From IMG/VR virus record IMGVR_UViG_3300024296_000003, positions 1 through 54,639 of that record: a stretch of DNA of 54,639 bases; one strand, 5' to 3'. Position 1 is the stretch's first letter. Every line of letters starts with the position of its first letter. The notes beneath the pieces are model-generated. The model did no database searches. It worked only from the letters and a program-made list of their open reading frames with translations, and was not told the origin of the DNA. Both the position numbers and the translations under genes were made by a program. This stretch comes from a virus (Duplodnaviria; Caudoviricetes). Below are positions 5,244 to 49,542 of the stretch, in pieces.

Positions 5244-8200
5244 TTACAGGAAGCCTCCACCGTCTACATCAGTTTCTTGGGCAAACCCTCGATTCACACC
5301 ACCACCTCTAGCAGATCCACCACCACCTCTAACAACTTGATTTACTCTAGTTGCCGTAACGGTTGGGCTTAACTTAGTTAATACTTTTTCCAAATCGTTT
5401 AAACCTTTAGTAACTGTTTTAGTTGGGAATACATCAATATTTAAATTATCAGATCTATATTTAGCAAATACCTCTATGTCGTATTGATAAACATCCTGGT
5501 TATTAGGGAATATATCAAAACCGACTTTCTTTGCATAGGTAAGGTTTACAGTTGCACCTGTACTATCACCTCCGATATTTCCTAGACCTCCAGCAGAACC
5601 ATCACCAGTACCAAAATAATCGGTCATCCTATATTGAAACACTAGTGGAATGTTAATTGAATTCTGTTGCCCAAATTGAATGATAGCCTCTGATTGTATT
5701 GAATCACCATTCATTTGTATACTTTGGTGTGCATCAGCAGACATAAATAAATAAGAACCTACTGATTGTTTACCTAGTGTATATTGATCAAATGTTTCAA
5801 ATGAATTTTTAGTATTTCTTTCATATCCATTTCCACTGTTTACTATATTAGGATCTACTGCATCAGATAGAGCATCTATTGCTACGATAGAAGGGCTAGC
5901 TATTAATGTTTGCCCAGAAGTCCATGTTTGACCTGCTAATGTTGATGTTGAGGCCATTTCTTGTAGCTTTATTGAATTTTCATTTAAGTATATTGACTGT
6001 TGCTTCCCATACGGTTGATCAGATTGCAGATTCATAAATTTAGATTGTCTAAACATAACATTAGCAGTACCATTACCACCTGTTGTACAGTCAGCTTGTG
6101 TAGAAGTTATAGGATCTCCTATATTACCTAGAGTGAAAGTATCTCCAGTAGCTCTTATGTATGCTTGTCTAAATGCATCCATACTTTGTACTATAGGATG
6201 ACTAGTATGTACCTCTAAAGTATTATCATCACCTAAAGGATAAGTCCCCGCTGTAGTCGGCTCTCCTGTAGTTACATCAAAACCACCACCCCATATAAAT
6301 TCAGTTTCTGAAACAATATTAGTATTAGTACTTCTACCATAAAAGTTTTCAGCAGTATCTAAATTAAATGTATAGTCACCATCTGGGTTAATGTAACTAT
6401 AGAAAGTTTCCTCAGATGATACATCATTAAATCTACTATTAATAAATTGGTTTTTATTTTGCGTAGATTGAAATGGTGCTAATGAAGTAGTTTGACCATA
6501 TTTCCAATCAGCATTAACAGTAGGATTGGTTAAAAGAATTGGAGTTAAATCATATTTTCGGACTGTATTATAATCTACATCTGATGATATATATGTAGCC
6601 CTACCATTACTCTGATTAGCTTGGCTATTATCTAACCATGAATATGTTGCAGGTAAAATAGTACTACCTCCAGTTACTTGAGCTACACTGTAGTTAGGAT
6701 CCTCTGATTGTTTAACCATTCTTTGTCTATTTCCTGCTATCCTAGAAACTAATCTTAAACCAGTCTGTTCTCGGTTTGATAAATTAATAAAGAATGTTTT
6801 AGATATTACAGCACCTCTTGGATCATCTAAGTTAGACACCTCCTGTGAATAAAATCCAGCAAATACTTTAGTTACAGCATTTCTCTTAATTCTTGTAACA
6901 TTACCTTGATCATCAATTAACTGACAAACCAATTCTCCTTGCGCATTAGAAAGTATTTCAGCAAATAAATCTAATTGATTTTGCATTTCTTGTAATTTAG
7001 TAAACAAATCAATTGGCGTTTGGTTTTCTGATAAAAAGCCTGATGCAATTACTGGTGATGAATGCGCATAATAAGTTTCATTCGCTGTAAAAGAACTGCT
7101 TAAATGTTGTTGTATACCTAATTCATTTAAATCTTCTTCTAATGAAACTTTAGCTAAGTCTTGTTGATTTTGATTAATTATTGCCTCTACTGCATTATCA
7201 GAACTCAGATCAGCTGGGAAAGGTATAACAACAGATCTTGACCAATCACTCTCTAGTGGATTGGTTGGCCAACCTGCCTCAGATACTGATTTTACTTGGA
7301 CTTCTACCTGTTCACCTTTTCTAATAGGTATATCTAATTGATTAATGTTTACGGCATCGGCGTTATCCGCATCTATTTCAACCCATTCATAAACCCCTGT
7401 GATAGAATTTTTAATCCTAGGTCTTAATGTACTGTCTATAATGTTATAATTTGAAAATGCACCTTGACTAACACCTGACCCATCAATAAAATTAAATTGA
7501 TCTACAGGGTTAGCTGCACCATCACTAGATAAATAACGATACCTAGTCTTAAACTTTACAATAGATTGAACTCCAGTTGCTGGTGTAGACTTTTCTTCTG
7601 GCATTGACCAAAATCCTCTTGCCCTATATTTAGGTGAAATAGATGATACTGAATTATCTTTTGCTTTAGCATCAATTTCTTTTACAACCGATGAATATAA
7701 TTGTCCTTGTGAAGACCTTTCTGTAATAAGACCTTGTAAAGCATTTACATCAGCATCTCTTTCAACTTCAGTTGAATAATTAGTAGTTTGTATTTTTGTC
7801 CTGCTTTGAGAAATTGCACCATCTAATTCTTTAAGTGTAGCTTCTATAGTATTTTTTTGATTATTTAAATCTGTTAATTCCACAATAGCCGGAGCATCAC
7901 TTACTTGGCCATTAATTAACTTAACCGCAAAATCCCCATCATTTAAGACTGGTGCATTAGGCTTAACACCTTCCCTCGTAGTAGGCATTCTATCATCTGC
8001 AAAGGAAAGTAACATAGCACCAAAATCAATAGCGCTTTGTTGATAATATTCGGCTAAGGTTTGCTCAACACCACCTTCATTAACAGTAGTTAATGTGTTA
8101 GTGTAGAACGCACTACCTGGCGACCAATTCACAGAAGGTATTTTTGAATCTGGGTCAATAGGTTTTACAAAAGTTACACATCTTTCATTAAACCCAACAG

Positions 8201-11324: not shown

Positions 11325-11969
11325 TTAAACTATTGTATATCCGGTTCCACCTACTAAGTACCAAACTCCATTTCCAAATCCATCATCAACACATAGTAAG
11401 TGAACAGTTTTACCTTGTTCATTTAACTCAATACTAGTACCACCTGGTAATACTAATGGAGTTACTGCACCGGTAATATTAATAACACCAGTCTGTGCTT
11501 CAGAATAGACAAAGAATATTTCTTGACCAATTGTACCATCATTAAGCTGAATAGTTACAGTTGTACCTGTACTATTACCAACCCTTTCAACAGTATATGG
11601 TGGAACAGCTGTACTTGTACCAACTGTAATTACACCAGGTGAACCTGTTGCAAATCCATCATTTAATGTTTGTGGATCAACATCATTTCTGACTAAACCT
11701 CCACCATTTAGGTTTAGGTTTCCTGTCATATTAACATTGGTTAAAACATCGAAGGTTGAAGCATTAATATCTAATAAGATGGTACTTAAACCTACTCTTA
11801 ATGATTCTGTCTTAACATCATTAAGATTAGTAATAGTACCAGCAGTAGGATTAAAGTAAACCTCCATTGCATTAATTTCACTGGTCAAAATATTGAAGTT
11901 ATCATTCAATACTAGTCTAGACCCAGATAATGAATCTGTTCCAAGAATTTCTGTTACGCTAATTGCCAT
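11325..11969 (-). CDS. Short fibre/baseplate-associated protein, 214 aa
   Basis: N-terminus MAISVTEILGTDSLSGSRLVLNDNF resembles that of the collagen fibre at 1-552; beta-rich body. Confidence 0.5.
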   Translation of the reverse strand: MAISVTEILGTDSLSGSRLVLNDNFNILTSEINAMEVYFNPTAGTITNLNDVKTESLRVGLSTILLDINASTFDVLTNVNMTGNLNLNGGGLVRNDVDPQTLNDGFATGSPGVITVGTSTAVPPYTVERVGNSTGTTVTIQLNDGTIGQEIFFVYSEAQTGVINITGAVTPLVLPGGTSIELNEQGKTVHLLCVDDGFGNGVWYLVGGTGYTIV

Positions 11970-46373: not shown

Positions 46374-46835
46374 TTATGATTTTTTTACAACAGATCCTGA
46401 AGGTACATTAGTATTAGCAGGAATAGTAACACCATTTTCTACAAAAACATTATCACCGATAGTAACACCATCTTCAATTACACAATTAATATCTATTGTA
46501 CAATTAGCTCCTATATAAACCTGGTCACCTATTGTTGTTCCAGGTCTAATCAGTGTGCAGCATCCTACTACTAAACCTTTACCTATAACAGAACCATCGA
46601 GATTATTACACCCTTTAAAGAATTGATGAATATTAGAAGAACTTAAATATTTACTTTCAACACTTAATCTTTCACTACCATCTTCAACTGCTATGATCCA
46701 TTCATTATCTCCACCTGCCTGAGAATAATTACTCTTATCATAAATTGCCCACTCCCCTACTTTAAGTAGTGAGGTAATTTTCGTAGACCACCCTGTAGGT
46801 ATTCCACTATCATTTGTTCCGTAAATGTTTAACAT
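46374..46835 (-). CDS. Hexapeptide-repeat (LbH) acetyltransferase-like protein, NeuD/PglD-like
   Basis: IGKGLVVG...TIGDQVYIGANCTIDINCVIEDGVTIGDNVFVENGVTIPANTNVPSGSVV. Confidence 0.7.
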   Translation of the reverse strand: MLNIYGTNDSGIPTGWSTKITSLLKVGEWAIYDKSNYSQAGGDNEWIIAVEDGSERLSVESKYLSSSNIHQFFKGCNNLDGSVIGKGLVVGCCTLIRPGTTIGDQVYIGANCTIDINCVIEDGVTIGDNVFVENGVTIPANTNVPSGSVVKKS

Positions 46836-46853
46836 ATCTTTTAATTTATTTTT

Positions 46854-47336
46854 TTATATATTTTCAGTTGAGTAATTTATTTCTAAATTCCCAAAAGTAG
46901 TATCAGTTACCCAATAAGGTGGTGGTGAGGTAACACTCTGTAAGTAAATACCGTTTTCAGGTTTCAGCATCTCTTCTATTTCTTCTTCATTTACTTGAAC
47001 AGATTCAGCAGCAGTGTGAGTGTGAGTGTGAACTGGCTCTTCTTCTGTTTCTTCAGTATCTGTAGTTTCCCATCTTAAACCAGTGCCTTCTAAATCTTGA
47101 TTGTCTAATTTATGAAGATCTCTTTGTACATATAATATACTACTACCTACTAGTTCGGCTTCTAAAATACCATCTACATAAATTTCCTTTACTGCATTAT
47201 ATGGAAGTTGGTTTGGAATTAATTCTTGGTATAAGTCTGATTGAGCTGAGATAATTTTTGCCACATACGCTTTAGCGTACTTAACATCATACTCTGAGAC
47301 TTTACCGTTTAGTGTAATTGTTTTTACTTTTGACAT
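46854..47336 (-). CDS. Hypothetical acidic protein, 160 aa
   Basis: ORF track; HTHTH stretch. Confidence 0.5.
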   Translation of the reverse strand: MSKVKTITLNGKVSEYDVKYAKAYVAKIISAQSDLYQELIPNQLPYNAVKEIYVDGILEAELVGSSILYVQRDLHKLDNQDLEGTGLRWETTDTEETEEEPVHTHTHTAAESVQVNEEEIEEMLKPENGIYLQSVTSPPPYWVTDTTFGNLEINYSTENI

Positions 47337-47360
47337 TAGGTTTAGATTGTAATAAAAAAA

Positions 47361-47788
47361 GGGAAGACGATACGGAAGGGCTTGAGAATACCTTCATCAT
47401 TGCGAGCTGCTTTAAATTAGACTACCACTTTCTGAATTGCCATTCTATTACTTAATTAAACCGGCCGAGGTTTAATCATCGTAATTGGTCATCATAACCT
47501 TTAAGTGTACCTTACGCCACATACTCTTTGCGTTGTTCAGTCATTAACTAGGGCTCGGCGGTCTGCCTTCCTAGAAGTCTTTGCAAAATCTCTGTTAGAT
47601 TTTTATTGCATTGAACCTAAGTTCTGGTAATTACCCCAGTTCTGTTTCCTCATTTGAGTCATCAGCGAACCATCGTTCTAACTTAGTGCCTTATTCCCTT
47701 TTGCTCAGGAATTTTTCGGCCACGCATCTACACATAATTGGAATAATCATTTAGGAGCTACCTAAAGCTTTCCGTTCTGTGCCTTCCC
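47361..47788 (-). ncRNA. Large structured non-coding RNA (~428 nt), family unassigned
   Basis: No ORF of 60 aa or more; GC richer than flanks; ends pair (GGGAAGGC..ACGGAA / TTCCGT..GTCTTCCC) and are followed by T7; about ten local hairpins; long-range complementarities; promoter-like motif upstream. Confidence 0.75.
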
Positions 47789-47826
47789 ATAATTTCATAG
47801 AACTTTTTAATCCTTTTGGATTTATT

Positions 47827-47855
47827 ATTATATACTTAGTTTAAAAATAGTTTCA
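47827..47855 (-). promoter_or_regulatory. Class B promoter-like motif TKAAAC-N17-TATAAW (also 30890-30918, 39781-39809, 43441-43469, 44125-44153, 50508-50536)
   Basis: Six copies with identical 17-nt spacing, each upstream of a gene or the ncRNA. Confidence 0.7.
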
Positions 47856-48344
47856 TTATTCAGAGGTATTAATTATCCCTCCAATAATTTTAGTTTCTGC
47901 TAGGTGATCGAACTCTCCATAGGTAATAATCTTATAACCTGTTTCAATAGGTTCAAATCGTTGAACACAAAGACCTTTTAATTCTTCACCAAAAATATCT
48001 AATTTAGAATGTTCATTAATGAAAGGCCCACCGCTCGGATCTACCATACTAATCCATGGATTTGATTTTACAAAATTTTGATATTGTTTTCCAATAACAC
48101 TAGGTCCTACATATCGATCGTTTTCATCATACACAGATTCATGAATTGCTTCTTTAAAACTTTCAATGTGCATTGGATGACCACCTTTGGAACCTACATC
48201 TTTACAGTAATTCTGATATGCTAATTTATAATCATTAGAACTTCCAAACCTACAGTGTTCAAAAGAACCTTCCCATAGGACTGAACCATCTTCTTGTTTT
48301 GTAAATGTGTAGACATCTCCGTATCTGTTTGTATACTTTACCAT
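47856..48344 (-). CDS. Hypothetical protein, 162 aa
   Basis: ORF track; NRYGD and MVDPSGGPFI motifs. Confidence 0.55.
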   Translation of the reverse strand: MVKYTNRYGDVYTFTKQEDGSVLWEGSFEHCRFGSSNDYKLAYQNYCKDVGSKGGHPMHIESFKEAIHESVYDENDRYVGPSVIGKQYQNFVKSNPWISMVDPSGGPFINEHSKLDIFGEELKGLCVQRFEPIETGYKIITYGEFDHLAETKIIGGIINTSE

Positions 48345-48365
48345 ATTTTTGTATTTTACTACCGG

Positions 48366-48439
48366 TGAACCAGACAGGATTCGAACCTGTGACCGTCTGC
48401 TTAGAAGGCAGATGCTCTATCCAACTGAGCTACTGGTCC
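48366..48439 (-). tRNA. tRNA-Arg(UCU)
   Basis: GGACCAG/CTGGTTC acceptor; TAGCTCAGTTGGATAGAGC D arm; TCTGC-CTTCTAA-GCAGA; GGTTCGAATCC. Confidence 0.95.
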
Positions 48440-48446
48440 AAATGTT

Positions 48447-48674
48447 TTAATCTAATTCTCCGTTACTCCATGCTTCATAAATGATTGCCATAATACCTTC
48501 ATCGGTATCAGCTTCTTCCCAACCAGTAGATTCATTCCACATAAAGAATTCTGTACTCTTTGGATTTTCAGCAATTCTTACTGATAAGTTTTCTCCGTTT
48601 ACTTCAAGATCGTATTCATTAGTAGTTGCCCACCATACTTCATCTTTACTTTTTACTTCAATTGAATACTCCAT
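48447..48674 (-). CDS. Hypothetical acidic protein, 75 aa
   Basis: ORF track; between tRNAs. Confidence 0.5.
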   Translation of the reverse strand: MEYSIEVKSKDEVWWATTNEYDLEVNGENLSVRIAENPKSTEFFMWNESTGWEEADTDEGIMAIIYEAWSNGELD

Positions 48675-48676
48675 AT

Positions 48677-48946
48677 TTAAATAGCTTTAAGAGATTCATC
48701 ATTATGATGAATAGTAACATCATAGTACCTTTCACCGCACATTGCATTTTTATATTGTTCTGCCCAATCTGGTCTTATTGAATAACCATGATAGTTATAA
48801 CTTATAACTCGACCTTTTTCTTGTTTATCTCTAAATACTGGAAGTACTACTCCATTACGGTCAGTCTTTCCTTCTGGGTGAGGTACACATGCCATTGGTT
48901 TAATCCATGTAACTTTGTCTCCTACATTAAATTTGTAATCTGTCAT
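48677..48946 (-). CDS. Hypothetical protein, 89 aa (SH3-like KFNVGDKV start)
   Basis: ORF track. Confidence 0.5.
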   Translation of the reverse strand: MTDYKFNVGDKVTWIKPMACVPHPEGKTDRNGVVLPVFRDKQEKGRVISYNYHGYSIRPDWAEQYKNAMCGERYYDVTIHHNDESLKAI

Positions 48947-48967
48947 TTTTTAATTATTAAAGGTTAG

Positions 48968-49053
48968 TACCGCTGGACGGATTCGAACCGTCACTCACCG
49001 TTCGGCGAAAGGGATTTTAAGTCCCTCGTGTCTACCAGTTTCACCACAGCGGC
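48968..49053 (-). tRNA. tRNA-Leu(UAA)
   Basis: GCCGCTG/CAGCGGT acceptor; AGGGA-CTTAAAA-TCCCT; long variable arm; GGTTCGAATCC. Confidence 0.95.
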
Positions 49054-49060
49054 ATTCGTT

Positions 49061-49288
49061 TTACTTATCTTTGTTCTTTGGGTTTATTGTGTTCTTATTA
49101 AATATAATTGAAAATAGTACATTCAATCCGAAGGCTTGCCAAAATCCAATAGGATTAACAGCATCTATAGCCGGTACGAGGCATTCATTCCAAAGCCATT
49201 GAGTAGGCCATGCAAGTATCAATGCCAGAATCACAAAGCCCAATATAAGTAAAAAGGCGAATGCGAAGGGAGCGGTAAATTTATTCAT
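49061..49288 (-). CDS. Small membrane protein, 75 aa
   Basis: Two hydrophobic segments; WLWN...IGFWQAFGL. Confidence 0.55.
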   Translation of the reverse strand: MNKFTAPFAFAFLLILGFVILALILAWPTQWLWNECLVPAIDAVNPIGFWQAFGLNVLFSIIFNKNTINPKNKDK

Positions 49289-49356
49289 ATTTGTTATATT
49301 GTTTATAGTATAATTATAACAGGTATAAATGTATTCTGAAAGTGTTTAGTAAAAAA

Positions 49357-49542
49357 TTATTCGTCATCTTTAAACATACCATACAAAAACATGAGAACAA
49401 AAAAAGGCCATGCTATAAACCAGAATATTCTTTCAAAATTAGTGGCAGGTTCCATATCTAGTTTTTGGTAAAGTGTATCAAAACAAAACCCACACACTAC
49501 ACCAATAGTAATATATGCAATAATATAATTAGATACCATCAA
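49357..49542 (-). CDS. Small membrane protein, 61 aa
   Basis: Two TM segments; FIAWPFF. Confidence 0.5.
   Translation of the reverse strand: MMVSNYIIAYITIGVVCGFCFDTLYQKLDMEPATNFERIFWFIAWPFFVLMFLYGMFKDDE

Follow-up and report, generated by a model that had tools for sequence, protein, structure and literature searches.

Two nested manA-like cores in a 428-nucleotide RNA from marine phage DNA

The virus record IMGVR_UViG_3300024296_000003 of IMG/VR is a viral contig of 54,639 bp, which was analysed over its whole length (hereafter the window). Two of its minus-strand open reading frames (ORFs), both without family assignment (47856-48344 and 46854-47336), enclose a stretch of 428 nucleotides (nt) whose overlapping ORFs reach only 32-47 amino acids (aa), and this raises the question of what is made there instead of a protein. 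A preliminary description, drawn from the letters of the DNA, had proposed a large, ornate non-coding RNA with a closing stem and had thought of a compact relative of the phage RNAs GOLLD and ROOL, of a possible group I-like ribozyme or of an undescribed class of RNA. The absence of a longer ORF is confirmed here, and covariation and RNA contigs bear out a large structured phage RNA. As to its identity, we are highly confident that the element is a real RNA of the manA superfamily (Rfam RF01745), with two cores in one chain, the second nested inside the first.

The manA family itself is already known, having been described by Weinberg et al. (2010; PMC2864571), in the part of that paper available to us, as a marine, cyanophage and gamma-proteobacterial riboswitch candidate located in the 5' untranslated regions (5' UTRs) of sugar, nucleotide and photosynthesis genes. 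At Rfam gathering thresholds, the window gives three transfer RNAs (tRNAs) only, and neither GOLLD nor ROOL anywhere in it. Searched over the whole record, the RF01745 model, whose gathering score is 55.2 bits, matches 47549-47740 with 30.9 bits (E 7.8e-8). When 47250-47900 was scanned by E-value, the only notable matches were two adjacent full-length manA alignments, one on the first half of the element (47574-47740, 26.2 bits, E 1e-4) and one on the second (47364-47569, 19.1 bits, E 0.013, or 0.005 on a smaller stretch), whereas RNase P, transfer-messenger RNA (tmRNA), group I and II introns, GOLLD and ROOL gave no match in that interval at E up to 10. The element is therefore not an undescribed class, as both halves match manA below the threshold and bear its core and junctions, and the proposed kinship with GOLLD and ROOL finds no Rfam match behind it.

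What makes the two halves manA-like is visible in their order of parts. Each carries the hallmark succession of UG, a 2-bp helix, (C/U)GAAnAA, a hairpin, UAAGG(C/U)AC, a helix junction and GGU. The internal loop of the manA core (UG, 2-bp helix, CUGAAUAA, hairpin, UAAgGu) is found in both cores, as UG-GC-CGAAAAA..UAAGGC in core 1, which fits the manA consensus GUGaCUGAAUAA..UAAgGug, and as UG-AC-UGAACAA..UAAGGU in core 2, and both are invariant or nearly so in 31 sequences of the window's own clade (clade A, introduced below). The manA closing helix, 5' of the core with its partner 3' of P5, corresponds to Pc, which here encloses both cores. Both four-way junctions contain compensatory pairs and each is followed by GGU or GGUA, and junction 1 has the AA that manA shows between arms 2 and 3. 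Much as in manA, P4 is followed by a P5 hairpin with GGUAU in stem and loop, and the RF01745 model aligns end to end with both halves; the origin in marine phages is likewise shared.

There are also departures from canonical manA. P4, a variable hairpin in manA, is here a long-range helix with two compensatory pairs that holds the whole second core. P5 (GAAGG-UAUUCUCAAGC-CCUUC) fits the manA P5 consensus (GGUAuac..AAUCC) in part only, and the P1 hairpin is present, with one compensatory pair, but has the loop UAGCU instead of the manA GAcG; a UAGCU-type loop also occurs in other sub-threshold manA-like RNAs (GUAGCUC), and the hairpin before core 2 has the loop AGACC. A regular-expression scan of the window detected no further manA-like core beyond these two. 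One complete manA-like shell is made up of Pc, core 1, junction 1, P4 and P5; core 2 and junction 2 are nested inside its P4 and share Pc and P5, while P0 is an added outer clamp. The fold is not a simple head-to-tail tandem, although RF01745 can read two units in it. Scores of 19-33 bits, two cores and two junctions per chain, the clamp, the P1 loop, a jumbo myovirus rather than a cyanophage as the source and tRNA islands, apparently rather than a 5' UTR, as the setting set this RNA apart from manA as described. The positions of all features are collected in Table 1.

Table 1. Features of the 428-nt RNA and its flanks, in window coordinates; compensatory pairs are those of clade A
Feature	Position	Strand	Remarks
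Whole RNA	47361-47788	minus	428 nt, from P0 5' to P0 3' strand; relatives 88-98% identical; RNA contigs with 0 mismatches over 47365-47767
P0 5' strand GGGAAGGC	47781-47788	minus	Start of GAAGGCACA, common to both clades; partner 47361-47368; 1 compensatory pair
P0 3' strand GUCUUCCC	47361-47368	minus	Pairs with 47781-47788
P1 hairpin UUUAGG-UAGCU-CCUAAA	47750-47766	minus	Loop invariant; 1 compensatory pair (GC->AU)
Pc 5' strand GAUGCG	47723-47728	minus	manA-type closing helix; UG and core next; partner 47369-47374; 1 compensatory pair
Pc 3' strand CGUAUC	47369-47374	minus	Directly after P5
Core 1: UG-GC-CGAAAAA, P2a hairpin, UAAGGCAC	47687-47722	minus	manA consensus and Rfam match
Four-way junction 1 (P3, P3a, P3b, AA, P3c)	47617-47686	minus	Compensatory pairs: P3 2, P3c 1; arranged as in the manA model; then GGU
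P4 5' strand UCAAUG	47609-47614	minus	Pairs with 47397-47402; long-range, encloses core 2; 2 compensatory pairs (UA<->CG, CG<->UA)
P4 3' strand CAAUGA	47397-47402	minus	One base before P5
P4a hairpin AAAAUCU-AACAG-AGAUUUU	47585-47603	minus	Invariant; clade-B hairpin in same place
P4b 5' strand AGACU	47576-47580	minus	Proposed partner AGUCU 47419-47423, from clade-B GCAU/AUGC; invariant in clade A
P1-like hairpin of second core (CUAGG..GGC-AGACC-GCC..CCUAG)	47548-47574	minus	2 compensatory pairs
Core 2: UG-AC-UGAACAA, P2a hairpin, UAAGGUAC	47508-47542	minus	manA match 19.1 bits; P2a 1 compensatory pair
Four-way junction 2 (P3, P3a, P3b with invariant loop UCGGCC, P3c)	47426-47507	minus	Compensatory pairs: P3a 1, P3c 2; then GGU
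P5 hairpin GAAGG-UAUUCUCAAGC-CCUUC	47375-47395	minus	1 compensatory pair (GC<->AU)
U7 tract	47354-47360	minus	Directly after P0
Conserved upstream motif AAAAAGUUCUAUGAAAUUA	47790-47808	minus	Similar motif before P0 in clade B
Sigma-70-like promoter match ATGAAA-18 nt-TATAAT	47827-47856	minus	10/12 positions; inside the 'class B motif' of the preliminary description

Whether this architecture is kept beyond one genome depends on its relatives. The ORF upstream of the RNA has 30 relatives in viral contigs, and the RNA follows it only in the closest of them, at 88-98% DNA identity; in the distant loci coding genes follow, so that the 428-nt RNA is confined to a close clade in that context, and an Rfam scan of 20 loci with distant homologues of the upstream ORF gave, at gathering thresholds, tRNAs only. 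Blastn of the element against 50,697 phage records returned no match. Searching viral contigs with the pattern GCTGAAAAA..TAAGGCAC produced mostly coding noise, but yielded the first member of a second clade (L257), and a pattern combining the 5' end with core 1 (GAAGGCACA..GAAAAA..TAAGGCAC) revealed this much-diverged clade B in viral contigs and, in metagenome contigs, at least 118 stretches with many more members of both clade A and clade B. After de-duplication, 31 distinct clade-A sequences (alignment A6, 39 rows) and 26 distinct clade-B sequences (A7, 29 rows), drawn among the matches listed, were available for counting; the rows dropped were elements cut at contig ends, a 231-nt fragment (L359) and coding or repeat noise (match lengths 65-78, 83-108 and 81). 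Since MAFFT misaligned the clades against each other at the 5' (A3) and 3' (A4) ends, all counts were made per clade.

Covariation among homologues from viral metagenomes, a check that the preliminary description had proposed, supports the RNA fold in both clades. In clade A, 98.8% of the cells of 110 pairs are paired and 15 pairs show compensatory changes, compared with 10.4 +/- 1.2 in shuffled alignments (0 of 500 reach the observed count) and 0-2 in slid controls, and in clade B, where 97.2% of the cells of 107 pairs are paired, there are 26 compensatory pairs compared with 15.0 +/- 1.8 (0 of 500) and 1-2, respectively; the shuffle control overstates the significance, as the sequences within each clade are kin, and the slid controls and double-change counts are safer. 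Smaller first-pass counts agree. The clade-A changes are spread over the helices as listed in Table 1, and those of clade B include two in P0 (AU<->GC and UA/GC/AU/GU changes), two in P4, three in P5 and three in the second P3. Furthermore, Pc, P4 and P4b occupy the same positions in the two clades with different sequences and complementarity retained: Pc reads GAUGCG/CG[U/C]AUC in clade A (one pair being GC in 20, GU in 8 and AU in 3 sequences) and GUGUA/UACAC in clade B, P4 reads UCAAUG/CAAUGA or UUAACG/CGUUAA in clade A and A[GA]AUCG/CGAU[CU]U in clade B, and P4b reads AGACU/AGUCU in clade A and GCAU/AUGC in clade B. The loops UAGCU, UCGGCC, AAAGAGUAUGUG and UAUUCUCAA recur unchanged in all 31 clade-A sequences; in clade B the loop UGAUCA is invariant and a GAAA/GAGA tetraloop is also strictly conserved. 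Two diverged clades in marine phage contigs keep one double-core architecture. Folding of the single sequence was only mildly better than that of shuffles (z = -2.0), and the support for the fold comes from covariation, not from folding energy. The manA model also recognises the relatives below its threshold, with 30.7 and 31.7 bits in clade A, best on core 1, and with 24.9-32.7 bits in five of five clade-B viral records, where it lies on core 2, P5 and the 3' closing strand.

One 49,134-bp viral contig (L009/L265) carries a homologue of the upstream ORF (82% identity) without a clade-A RNA in the 305 nt before the contig end, and bears a clade-B RNA elsewhere, so that the two clades occupy different genome positions in related phages.

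The same alignments sort the helices that had been drawn at the outset. The outer closing stem, GGGAAGGC with GUCUUCCC, is paired in 98.4% of cells over the 31 sequences, with one compensatory pair, its clade-B equivalent has two covarying pairs, and the U-run noted behind it recurs in 29 of the 30 clade-A relatives with at least 60 nt of 3' flank. Among the local hairpins, UUUAGG/CCUAAA gains one compensatory pair, CUAGG/CCUAG and GAAGG/CCUUC show compensatory changes, GAAC/GUUC and AUUAAACC/GGUUUAAU hold with one-sided G-U changes only, and AUUCCU/GGGAAU and AAAAUCU/AGAUUUU are invariant; of ACGC/GCGU, the core CGC/GCG stands, with one compensatory pair. The long-range pairing CUAAGUU/AACUUAG proved to be helix P3 of the first core, with two compensatory pairs, while the four other long-range proposals show no compensatory change in 23 pairs over the 31 clade-A sequences. 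The inner closing stem ACGGAA/UUCCGU loses an A-U pair in 20 of 31 sequences and its 3' strand is taken by the covarying P5 and Pc; UCGGCC/GGCCGA loses its first pair, again in 20 of 31, and GGCCGA belongs to the conserved manA core and P2. GACUG/UAGUC, likened to P7 of group I introns, is invariant, GACUG being part of manA core 2 and UAGUC pairing equally well with AGACU (47580-47576) in the proposed P4b. The loops AGAGUA and UAUUCU, proposed to pair with each other, are invariant in clade A, and no counterpart was seen in clade B.

In the junction arms, the elements GAUGA/UGAUG and CUGA give rise to weak matches to C/D-box small nucleolar RNA models (47469-47549 and nearby, E 3.6-9.8). These elements are also found in canonical manA (cUGAUGg..cUGAgg) and might be kink-turn-like.

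Is the RNA made in nature? Twenty public sequencing runs contain part of a 1.6-kb stretch around the element; 14 of them, seawater or marine runs of DNA type, hold at least 87% of the words of this stretch, and the other 6, RNA runs, hold 24-38%. We compared the stretch with three seawater metatranscriptomes from three studies (X15, X16 and X17) and with one oligo-dT run. Contigs with 0 mismatches cover 47386-47603, 47574-47711 and 47682-47767 in X15, 47365-47605, 47576-47711 and 47682-47767 in X16, and 47417-47767 in X17. The k-mer depth of these element contigs is 779-2,535, and that of contigs of the flanking ORFs identical to the window (e.g., 47003-47153 and 48032-48182) is 2.2-4.2. In the three metatranscriptomes, the RNA contigs are several hundred-fold deeper on the element than on the flanking genes. 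Other contigs, of depth 28-200, match core 2 only, with 3-5 differences, indicating that RNAs of relatives are present in the runs too.

No contig of the runs compared covers 47768-47983, and the coverage of all three metatranscriptomes ends at 47767, 21 nt before the first base of P0; at the other side, the X16 contig start at 47365 is joined to adapter sequence. Position 47767 was considered as a mapped 5' end and rejected, as 47768 is polymorphic (G/A) among relatives and assembly may, on our assumption, clip short dead-end branches.

The surroundings of the RNA were surveyed by running aragorn on the flanks of all distinct elements. Of the 19 clade-A loci with 1 kb of upstream flank, 18 have a same-strand tRNA in it, and in 3 of 30 clade-A loci the start of a tRNA follows P0 at 12-13 nt. 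Of the 25 clade-B loci, 13 have a same-strand tRNA that ends 22-26 nt before the RNA, and 9 have one that begins 12-45 nt after it. Over both clades, 12 relatives have a same-strand tRNA starting 12-45 nt after P0, and a tRNA on the opposite strand was found in none of the loci surveyed in either clade. In the window, tRNA-Arg lies 576 nt upstream of the RNA and tRNA-Leu farther upstream. The U-run after P0 is present in 19 of 25 clade-B loci, and the other six have a separate canonical hairpin terminator. A tRNA only 12 nt after the U-run argues that P0 and the U-run are not an efficient stop; a scan of 46800-49400 for intrinsic terminators, defined by a local GC-rich hairpin with a 3-8 nt loop and a U-run behind it, found 0, the strands of P0 being about 400 nt apart. 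Because the downstream neighbour is unconserved and often a tRNA, the element is probably not a dedicated leader.

On the 5' side, a motif of the form AGTTCT[AT]T[GA]A[AC]AT[AT]T precedes P0 in both clades, even where a tRNA ends 22-26 nt before it (L264, 2244-2268; L257, ~11670-11693), and may serve as a processing signal or as a promoter read by a phage-specific polymerase or sigma factor. Sigma-70-like matches of 10/12 quality, like the one in Table 1, are equally frequent in shuffles. A promoter-motif search was only marginally above chance, with 6 matches versus 2.2 expected, 5 of them with 3 mismatches. The 'class B motif' that the preliminary description had assigned to the RNA is an invariant block in 6 close relatives, but a pattern search of the window did not find it significantly repeated, the matches being not above chance.

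Between the -10 box and the RNA lies a further hairpin, AAUCC-AAAA-GGAUU (47803-47825), with a chance-level match to CRISPR-DR17 (22 bits, E 0.16); its AAUCC/GGAUU stem covaries among close relatives (UCC/GGA versus UUC/GAA).

What such an RNA might do is best approached from two sets of cage-forming RNAs. Canonical manA RNAs of less than 200 nt have been reported, in the available part of a preprint, to assemble in vitro and without protein into octamers, decamers and a 60-subunit icosahedral cage, with pentamers as building blocks held by intermolecular kissing loops and a GNRA-receptor contact (bioRxiv 10.64898/2026.07.01.735769). Nanocages are also built by ROOL and GOLLD, which phages encode close to tRNA islands; in one strain the level of ROOL equals that of 16S rRNA (Kretsch et al. 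2025, PMC12286853, in the part available). With these the 428-nt RNA shares the class of large phage or prophage RNAs near tRNA islands, of which ROOL is very abundant and which build RNA-only cages through kissing loops (PMC12286853); it differs in having no detectable similarity of sequence or structure to them and in its length (428 nt versus 659 for the ROOL studied and more than 800 for many GOLLD RNAs, by the same source). What the 428-nt RNA has in common with GOLLD and ROOL is context and possibly behaviour rather than ancestry, and the earlier idea of looking for oligomers was an apt one.

The explanation that we consider best overall, with slightly better than even confidence, is a stand-alone, stable double-core manA-like phage RNA that may self-assemble. 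Its parts differ in weight: that the element is a stand-alone abundant RNA we regard as quite probable, and its self-assembly, argued by analogy with the shorter manA RNAs, as a tentative proposal. The RNA would be made from its own promoter in the window, and in many relatives it would probably share a transcript with tRNAs, from which tRNA-processing cuts in the AU-rich flanks would free it. P0 would join and protect both RNA ends. During infection the RNA may act as a self-assembling particle, as canonical manA does in vitro, with each chain contributing two core modules; the strictly invariant hairpin loops are candidate contact points, and two of them contain palindromes, AGCU (in UAGCU) and GGCC (in UCGGCC). 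Such a particle might enclose phage tRNAs or guard them, or it might sequester a host factor. Stable RNAs among phage tRNA genes have a precedent in the tRNA cluster of phage T4, where the small rnaC and rnaD ('species 1 and 2') are probably released by tRNA processing, but they are much smaller than the 428-nt RNA.

Several points speak against this picture. Neither half of the element reaches the RF01745 gathering score of 55.2 bits, so that formal membership fails, and a MAFFT alignment of four core modules (A8) was too poor in the junctions for a covariance model. The depths are taken from assembled contigs and are coarse, giving neither strand nor exact ends nor true abundance, and the RNA runs were selected through this very stretch. 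A contig of the oligo-dT run, of depth 3.6, spans 47300-47575 and links the RNA with the downstream ORF, which shows that there is some read-through or that the oligo-dT library contains DNA. A leader would also fit the ORF that begins about 20-25 nt past the U-run in most clade-A loci, and short palindromic loops are not rare by chance. Finally, only canonical manA RNAs, which are shorter, are known to assemble, in vitro and at 10 mM Mg, and the available part of the preprint holds no in vivo work (bioRxiv 10.64898/2026.07.01.735769).

Could the RNA instead work as a monomer? A stable decoy or scaffold that binds a host or phage protein or RNA, for example tRNA-processing or tRNA-targeting defence enzymes, without self-assembly, seems unlikely to us. 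It would suit the location in tRNA islands on the tRNA strand, the high steady-state level suggested by contig depth and the strict conservation of unpaired nucleotides in cores and loops, but canonical manA RNAs oligomerise without any protein (bioRxiv 10.64898/2026.07.01.735769, in the part available). The weak C/D-box-like matches (UGAUGA/CUGA) are possibly kink-turn-like protein sites; however, no protein gene is conserved as a neighbour, no family could be assigned to the flanking ORFs, and the upstream one is also found where the RNA is absent.

Quite improbable, in our judgement, is a cis-regulatory double riboswitch in which two manA-type aptamers sense a metabolite and P0 with U7 is a long-range terminator for the downstream operon. 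Tandem-aptamer riboswitches, such as the glycine riboswitch, do carry two homologous ligand-binding-type domains per transcript, with flanking pairing; the second module of the 428-nt RNA differs in being nested and in sharing the closing helix and P5, and its downstream gene is unconserved. manA was first proposed as a 5'-UTR riboswitch candidate (PMC2864571, in the part available), and in small phage contigs single-core manA-like RNAs are followed, at a distance of about 140 nt, by a start codon and its Shine-Dalgarno sequence, but the literature searched names no manA ligand since the 2010 description. Behind P0, 29 of 30 clade-A and 19 of 25 clade-B relatives have the U-run, yet no terminator emerged from the scan, and the tRNA 12 nt after the U-run argues against an efficient stop. 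Likewise, the ATG at 47336 in the window lies 25 nt past P0 and a low-depth contig of an RNA library bridges into the ORF, whereas contig depth is several hundred-fold higher on the element than on the ORF. A hexapeptide transferase gene lies downstream in the window, and RmlD-like and cytidylyltransferase genes lie near the clade-B RNA, but these clade-B sugar genes are upstream of the RNA, not downstream. Over the relatives, the downstream neighbour is unconserved, with a tRNA 12-45 nt away in 12 and a separate terminator in 6.

A compact GOLLD or ROOL homologue or a group I-like self-processing ribozyme is highly improbable, since phage origin, size, nearby tRNAs, the ornate fold and a GACUG/UAGUC pair that can be drawn as P7-like are outweighed by the absence, at E up to 10 over 47250-47900, of any match to GOLLD, ROOL, group I or II introns, RNase P or tmRNA, by GACUG being conserved manA core whose proposed pairing does not covary, and by the lack of an interrupted gene.

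For the stand-alone double-core RNA that we favour, we found no description, in the manA literature searched, of the nested double core, the outer clamp, the jumbo-phage tRNA-island setting or the abundance in situ, although such variants could lie in the supplementary material of the 2010 article or the preprint; PMC7266159 has 0 mentions of manA. The double-core nested architecture with its P0 clamp appears new, being not described in the literature searched. For the function of manA, the element adds a natural two-core nested form, a setting in tRNA islands of non-cyanophage jumbo phages and deep RNA contigs in situ, and these facts, together with the cages reported in vitro in the available part of the 2026 preprint, shift the likely role of manA from a gene leader to an abundant structural RNA. 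A bolder proposal, which we hold to be possible but doubtful, is that manA-superfamily RNAs are a third lineage of self-assembling phage RNA particles of tRNA islands, beside ROOL and GOLLD, and that the double-core form would build a particle of new geometry, at very high copy, in infected marine (probably Flavobacteriales) cells, where it would hold or shield tRNAs or trap a host factor. In any case, the 428-nt RNA is a concrete, short and natural target for cryo-electron microscopy and infection experiments.

The phage from which the window derives can be placed by its genes. The contig is 21% complete by CheckV estimate and includes genes for baseplate, head-tail adaptor and DNA ligase. 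A 472-aa ORF resembles, with 26-30% identity, proteins of Sphingomonas phage PAU, Tenacibaculum phages PTm1/PTm5 and Lak phages; the source is accordingly an AT-rich marine jumbo myovirus, a distant relation of these phages and not a cyanophage. The RNA is followed by a 160-aa ORF, a hexapeptide acetyltransferase gene and a 397-aa ORF. Pfam and PHROG scans of the flanking ORFs and of ORFs after other manA-like RNAs gave hexapeptide transferase, ligase, RmlD-like and cytidylyltransferase as the only informative assignments. A complete clade-B element with its terminator was found on L409 (PKDP01000085.1, 5,632 bp), a contig binned in a Flavobacteriales metagenome-assembled genome; among the 5 examined of the 14 matching stretches in genome contigs, this was the only true clade-B element, and its binning is a weak hint to Flavobacteriales as the host group of the element-bearing phages.

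Genes of sugar-nucleotide type lie near the RNA in both clades, namely the hexapeptide-repeat acetyltransferase downstream in the window (46374-46835) and, in clade B (L257, 8659-11416), an RmlD-like reductase and a cytidylyltransferase upstream of the RNA, beside a DNA ligase. They recall the sugar-metabolism contexts first reported for manA.

Beyond the two clades, manA-like cores are common in viral data. At least 116 stretches of viral contigs contain the motif GACTGAANAA-N(8-30)-TAAGGTAC; among the matches listed, 57 have a hairpin of at least 4 bp between the motif halves, and 48 of them are unique and outside the window's clade. The core motif GACUGAAnAA-hairpin-UAAGGUAC recurs in these 48 further unique viral loci, and their hairpin stems vary freely yet stay complementary. 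At gathering thresholds, only one of 18 such loci (L046, 84.3 bits) is recognised as manA, and of 39 records, that of L046 not among them, 26 give sub-threshold RF01745 matches of 23-48.6 bits and 0 exceed the cut-off. The 428-nt RNA therefore lies on a continuum of manA-like RNAs, a family that the Rfam model clearly under-covers in viral data. Seven of the 48 loci lie within 1 kb of same-strand tRNAs, five of them in contigs of 115-193 kb and two (L061 and L072) in fragments of about 9-10 kb (the L061 record being ~3% complete). The other 41 have no tRNA in the locus, and in those examined among them a Shine-Dalgarno sequence with its start codon lies some 140 nt beyond the core.

Within this wider family, some further forms were observed. 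Single-core manA-like RNAs of about 180 nt occur in small phage contigs (L037, L039, L041, L043, L056, L058, L066, L069, L074, L077 and about 30 more); they are without two junction arms and score 28-44 bits with RF01745, and several of their records, of 35-39 kb, are rated 100% complete. In a subtype from tRNA arrays (L049, ~7649-7682, minus strand; L061/L072; L078), a long hairpin with the conserved loop CUGAAAAG replaces the junction. The loci L049, L061 and L072 hold 9-17 tRNAs each, and L078 has a single one, at a distance of 144 nt. A second unit, smaller and of (G/U)CUGAA type, seems to follow in L049 and L061, so multi-unit forms may recur in the superfamily. Lastly, metagenome contigs (L287, L291, L294, L312 and L387; 7 unique variants) contain a possible 'mini' form of about 110 nt, in which GAAGGCACA is followed by a short hairpin, GAAAAA-hairpin-UAAGGCAC, one hairpin and a ..CCUUC that closes on GAAGG.

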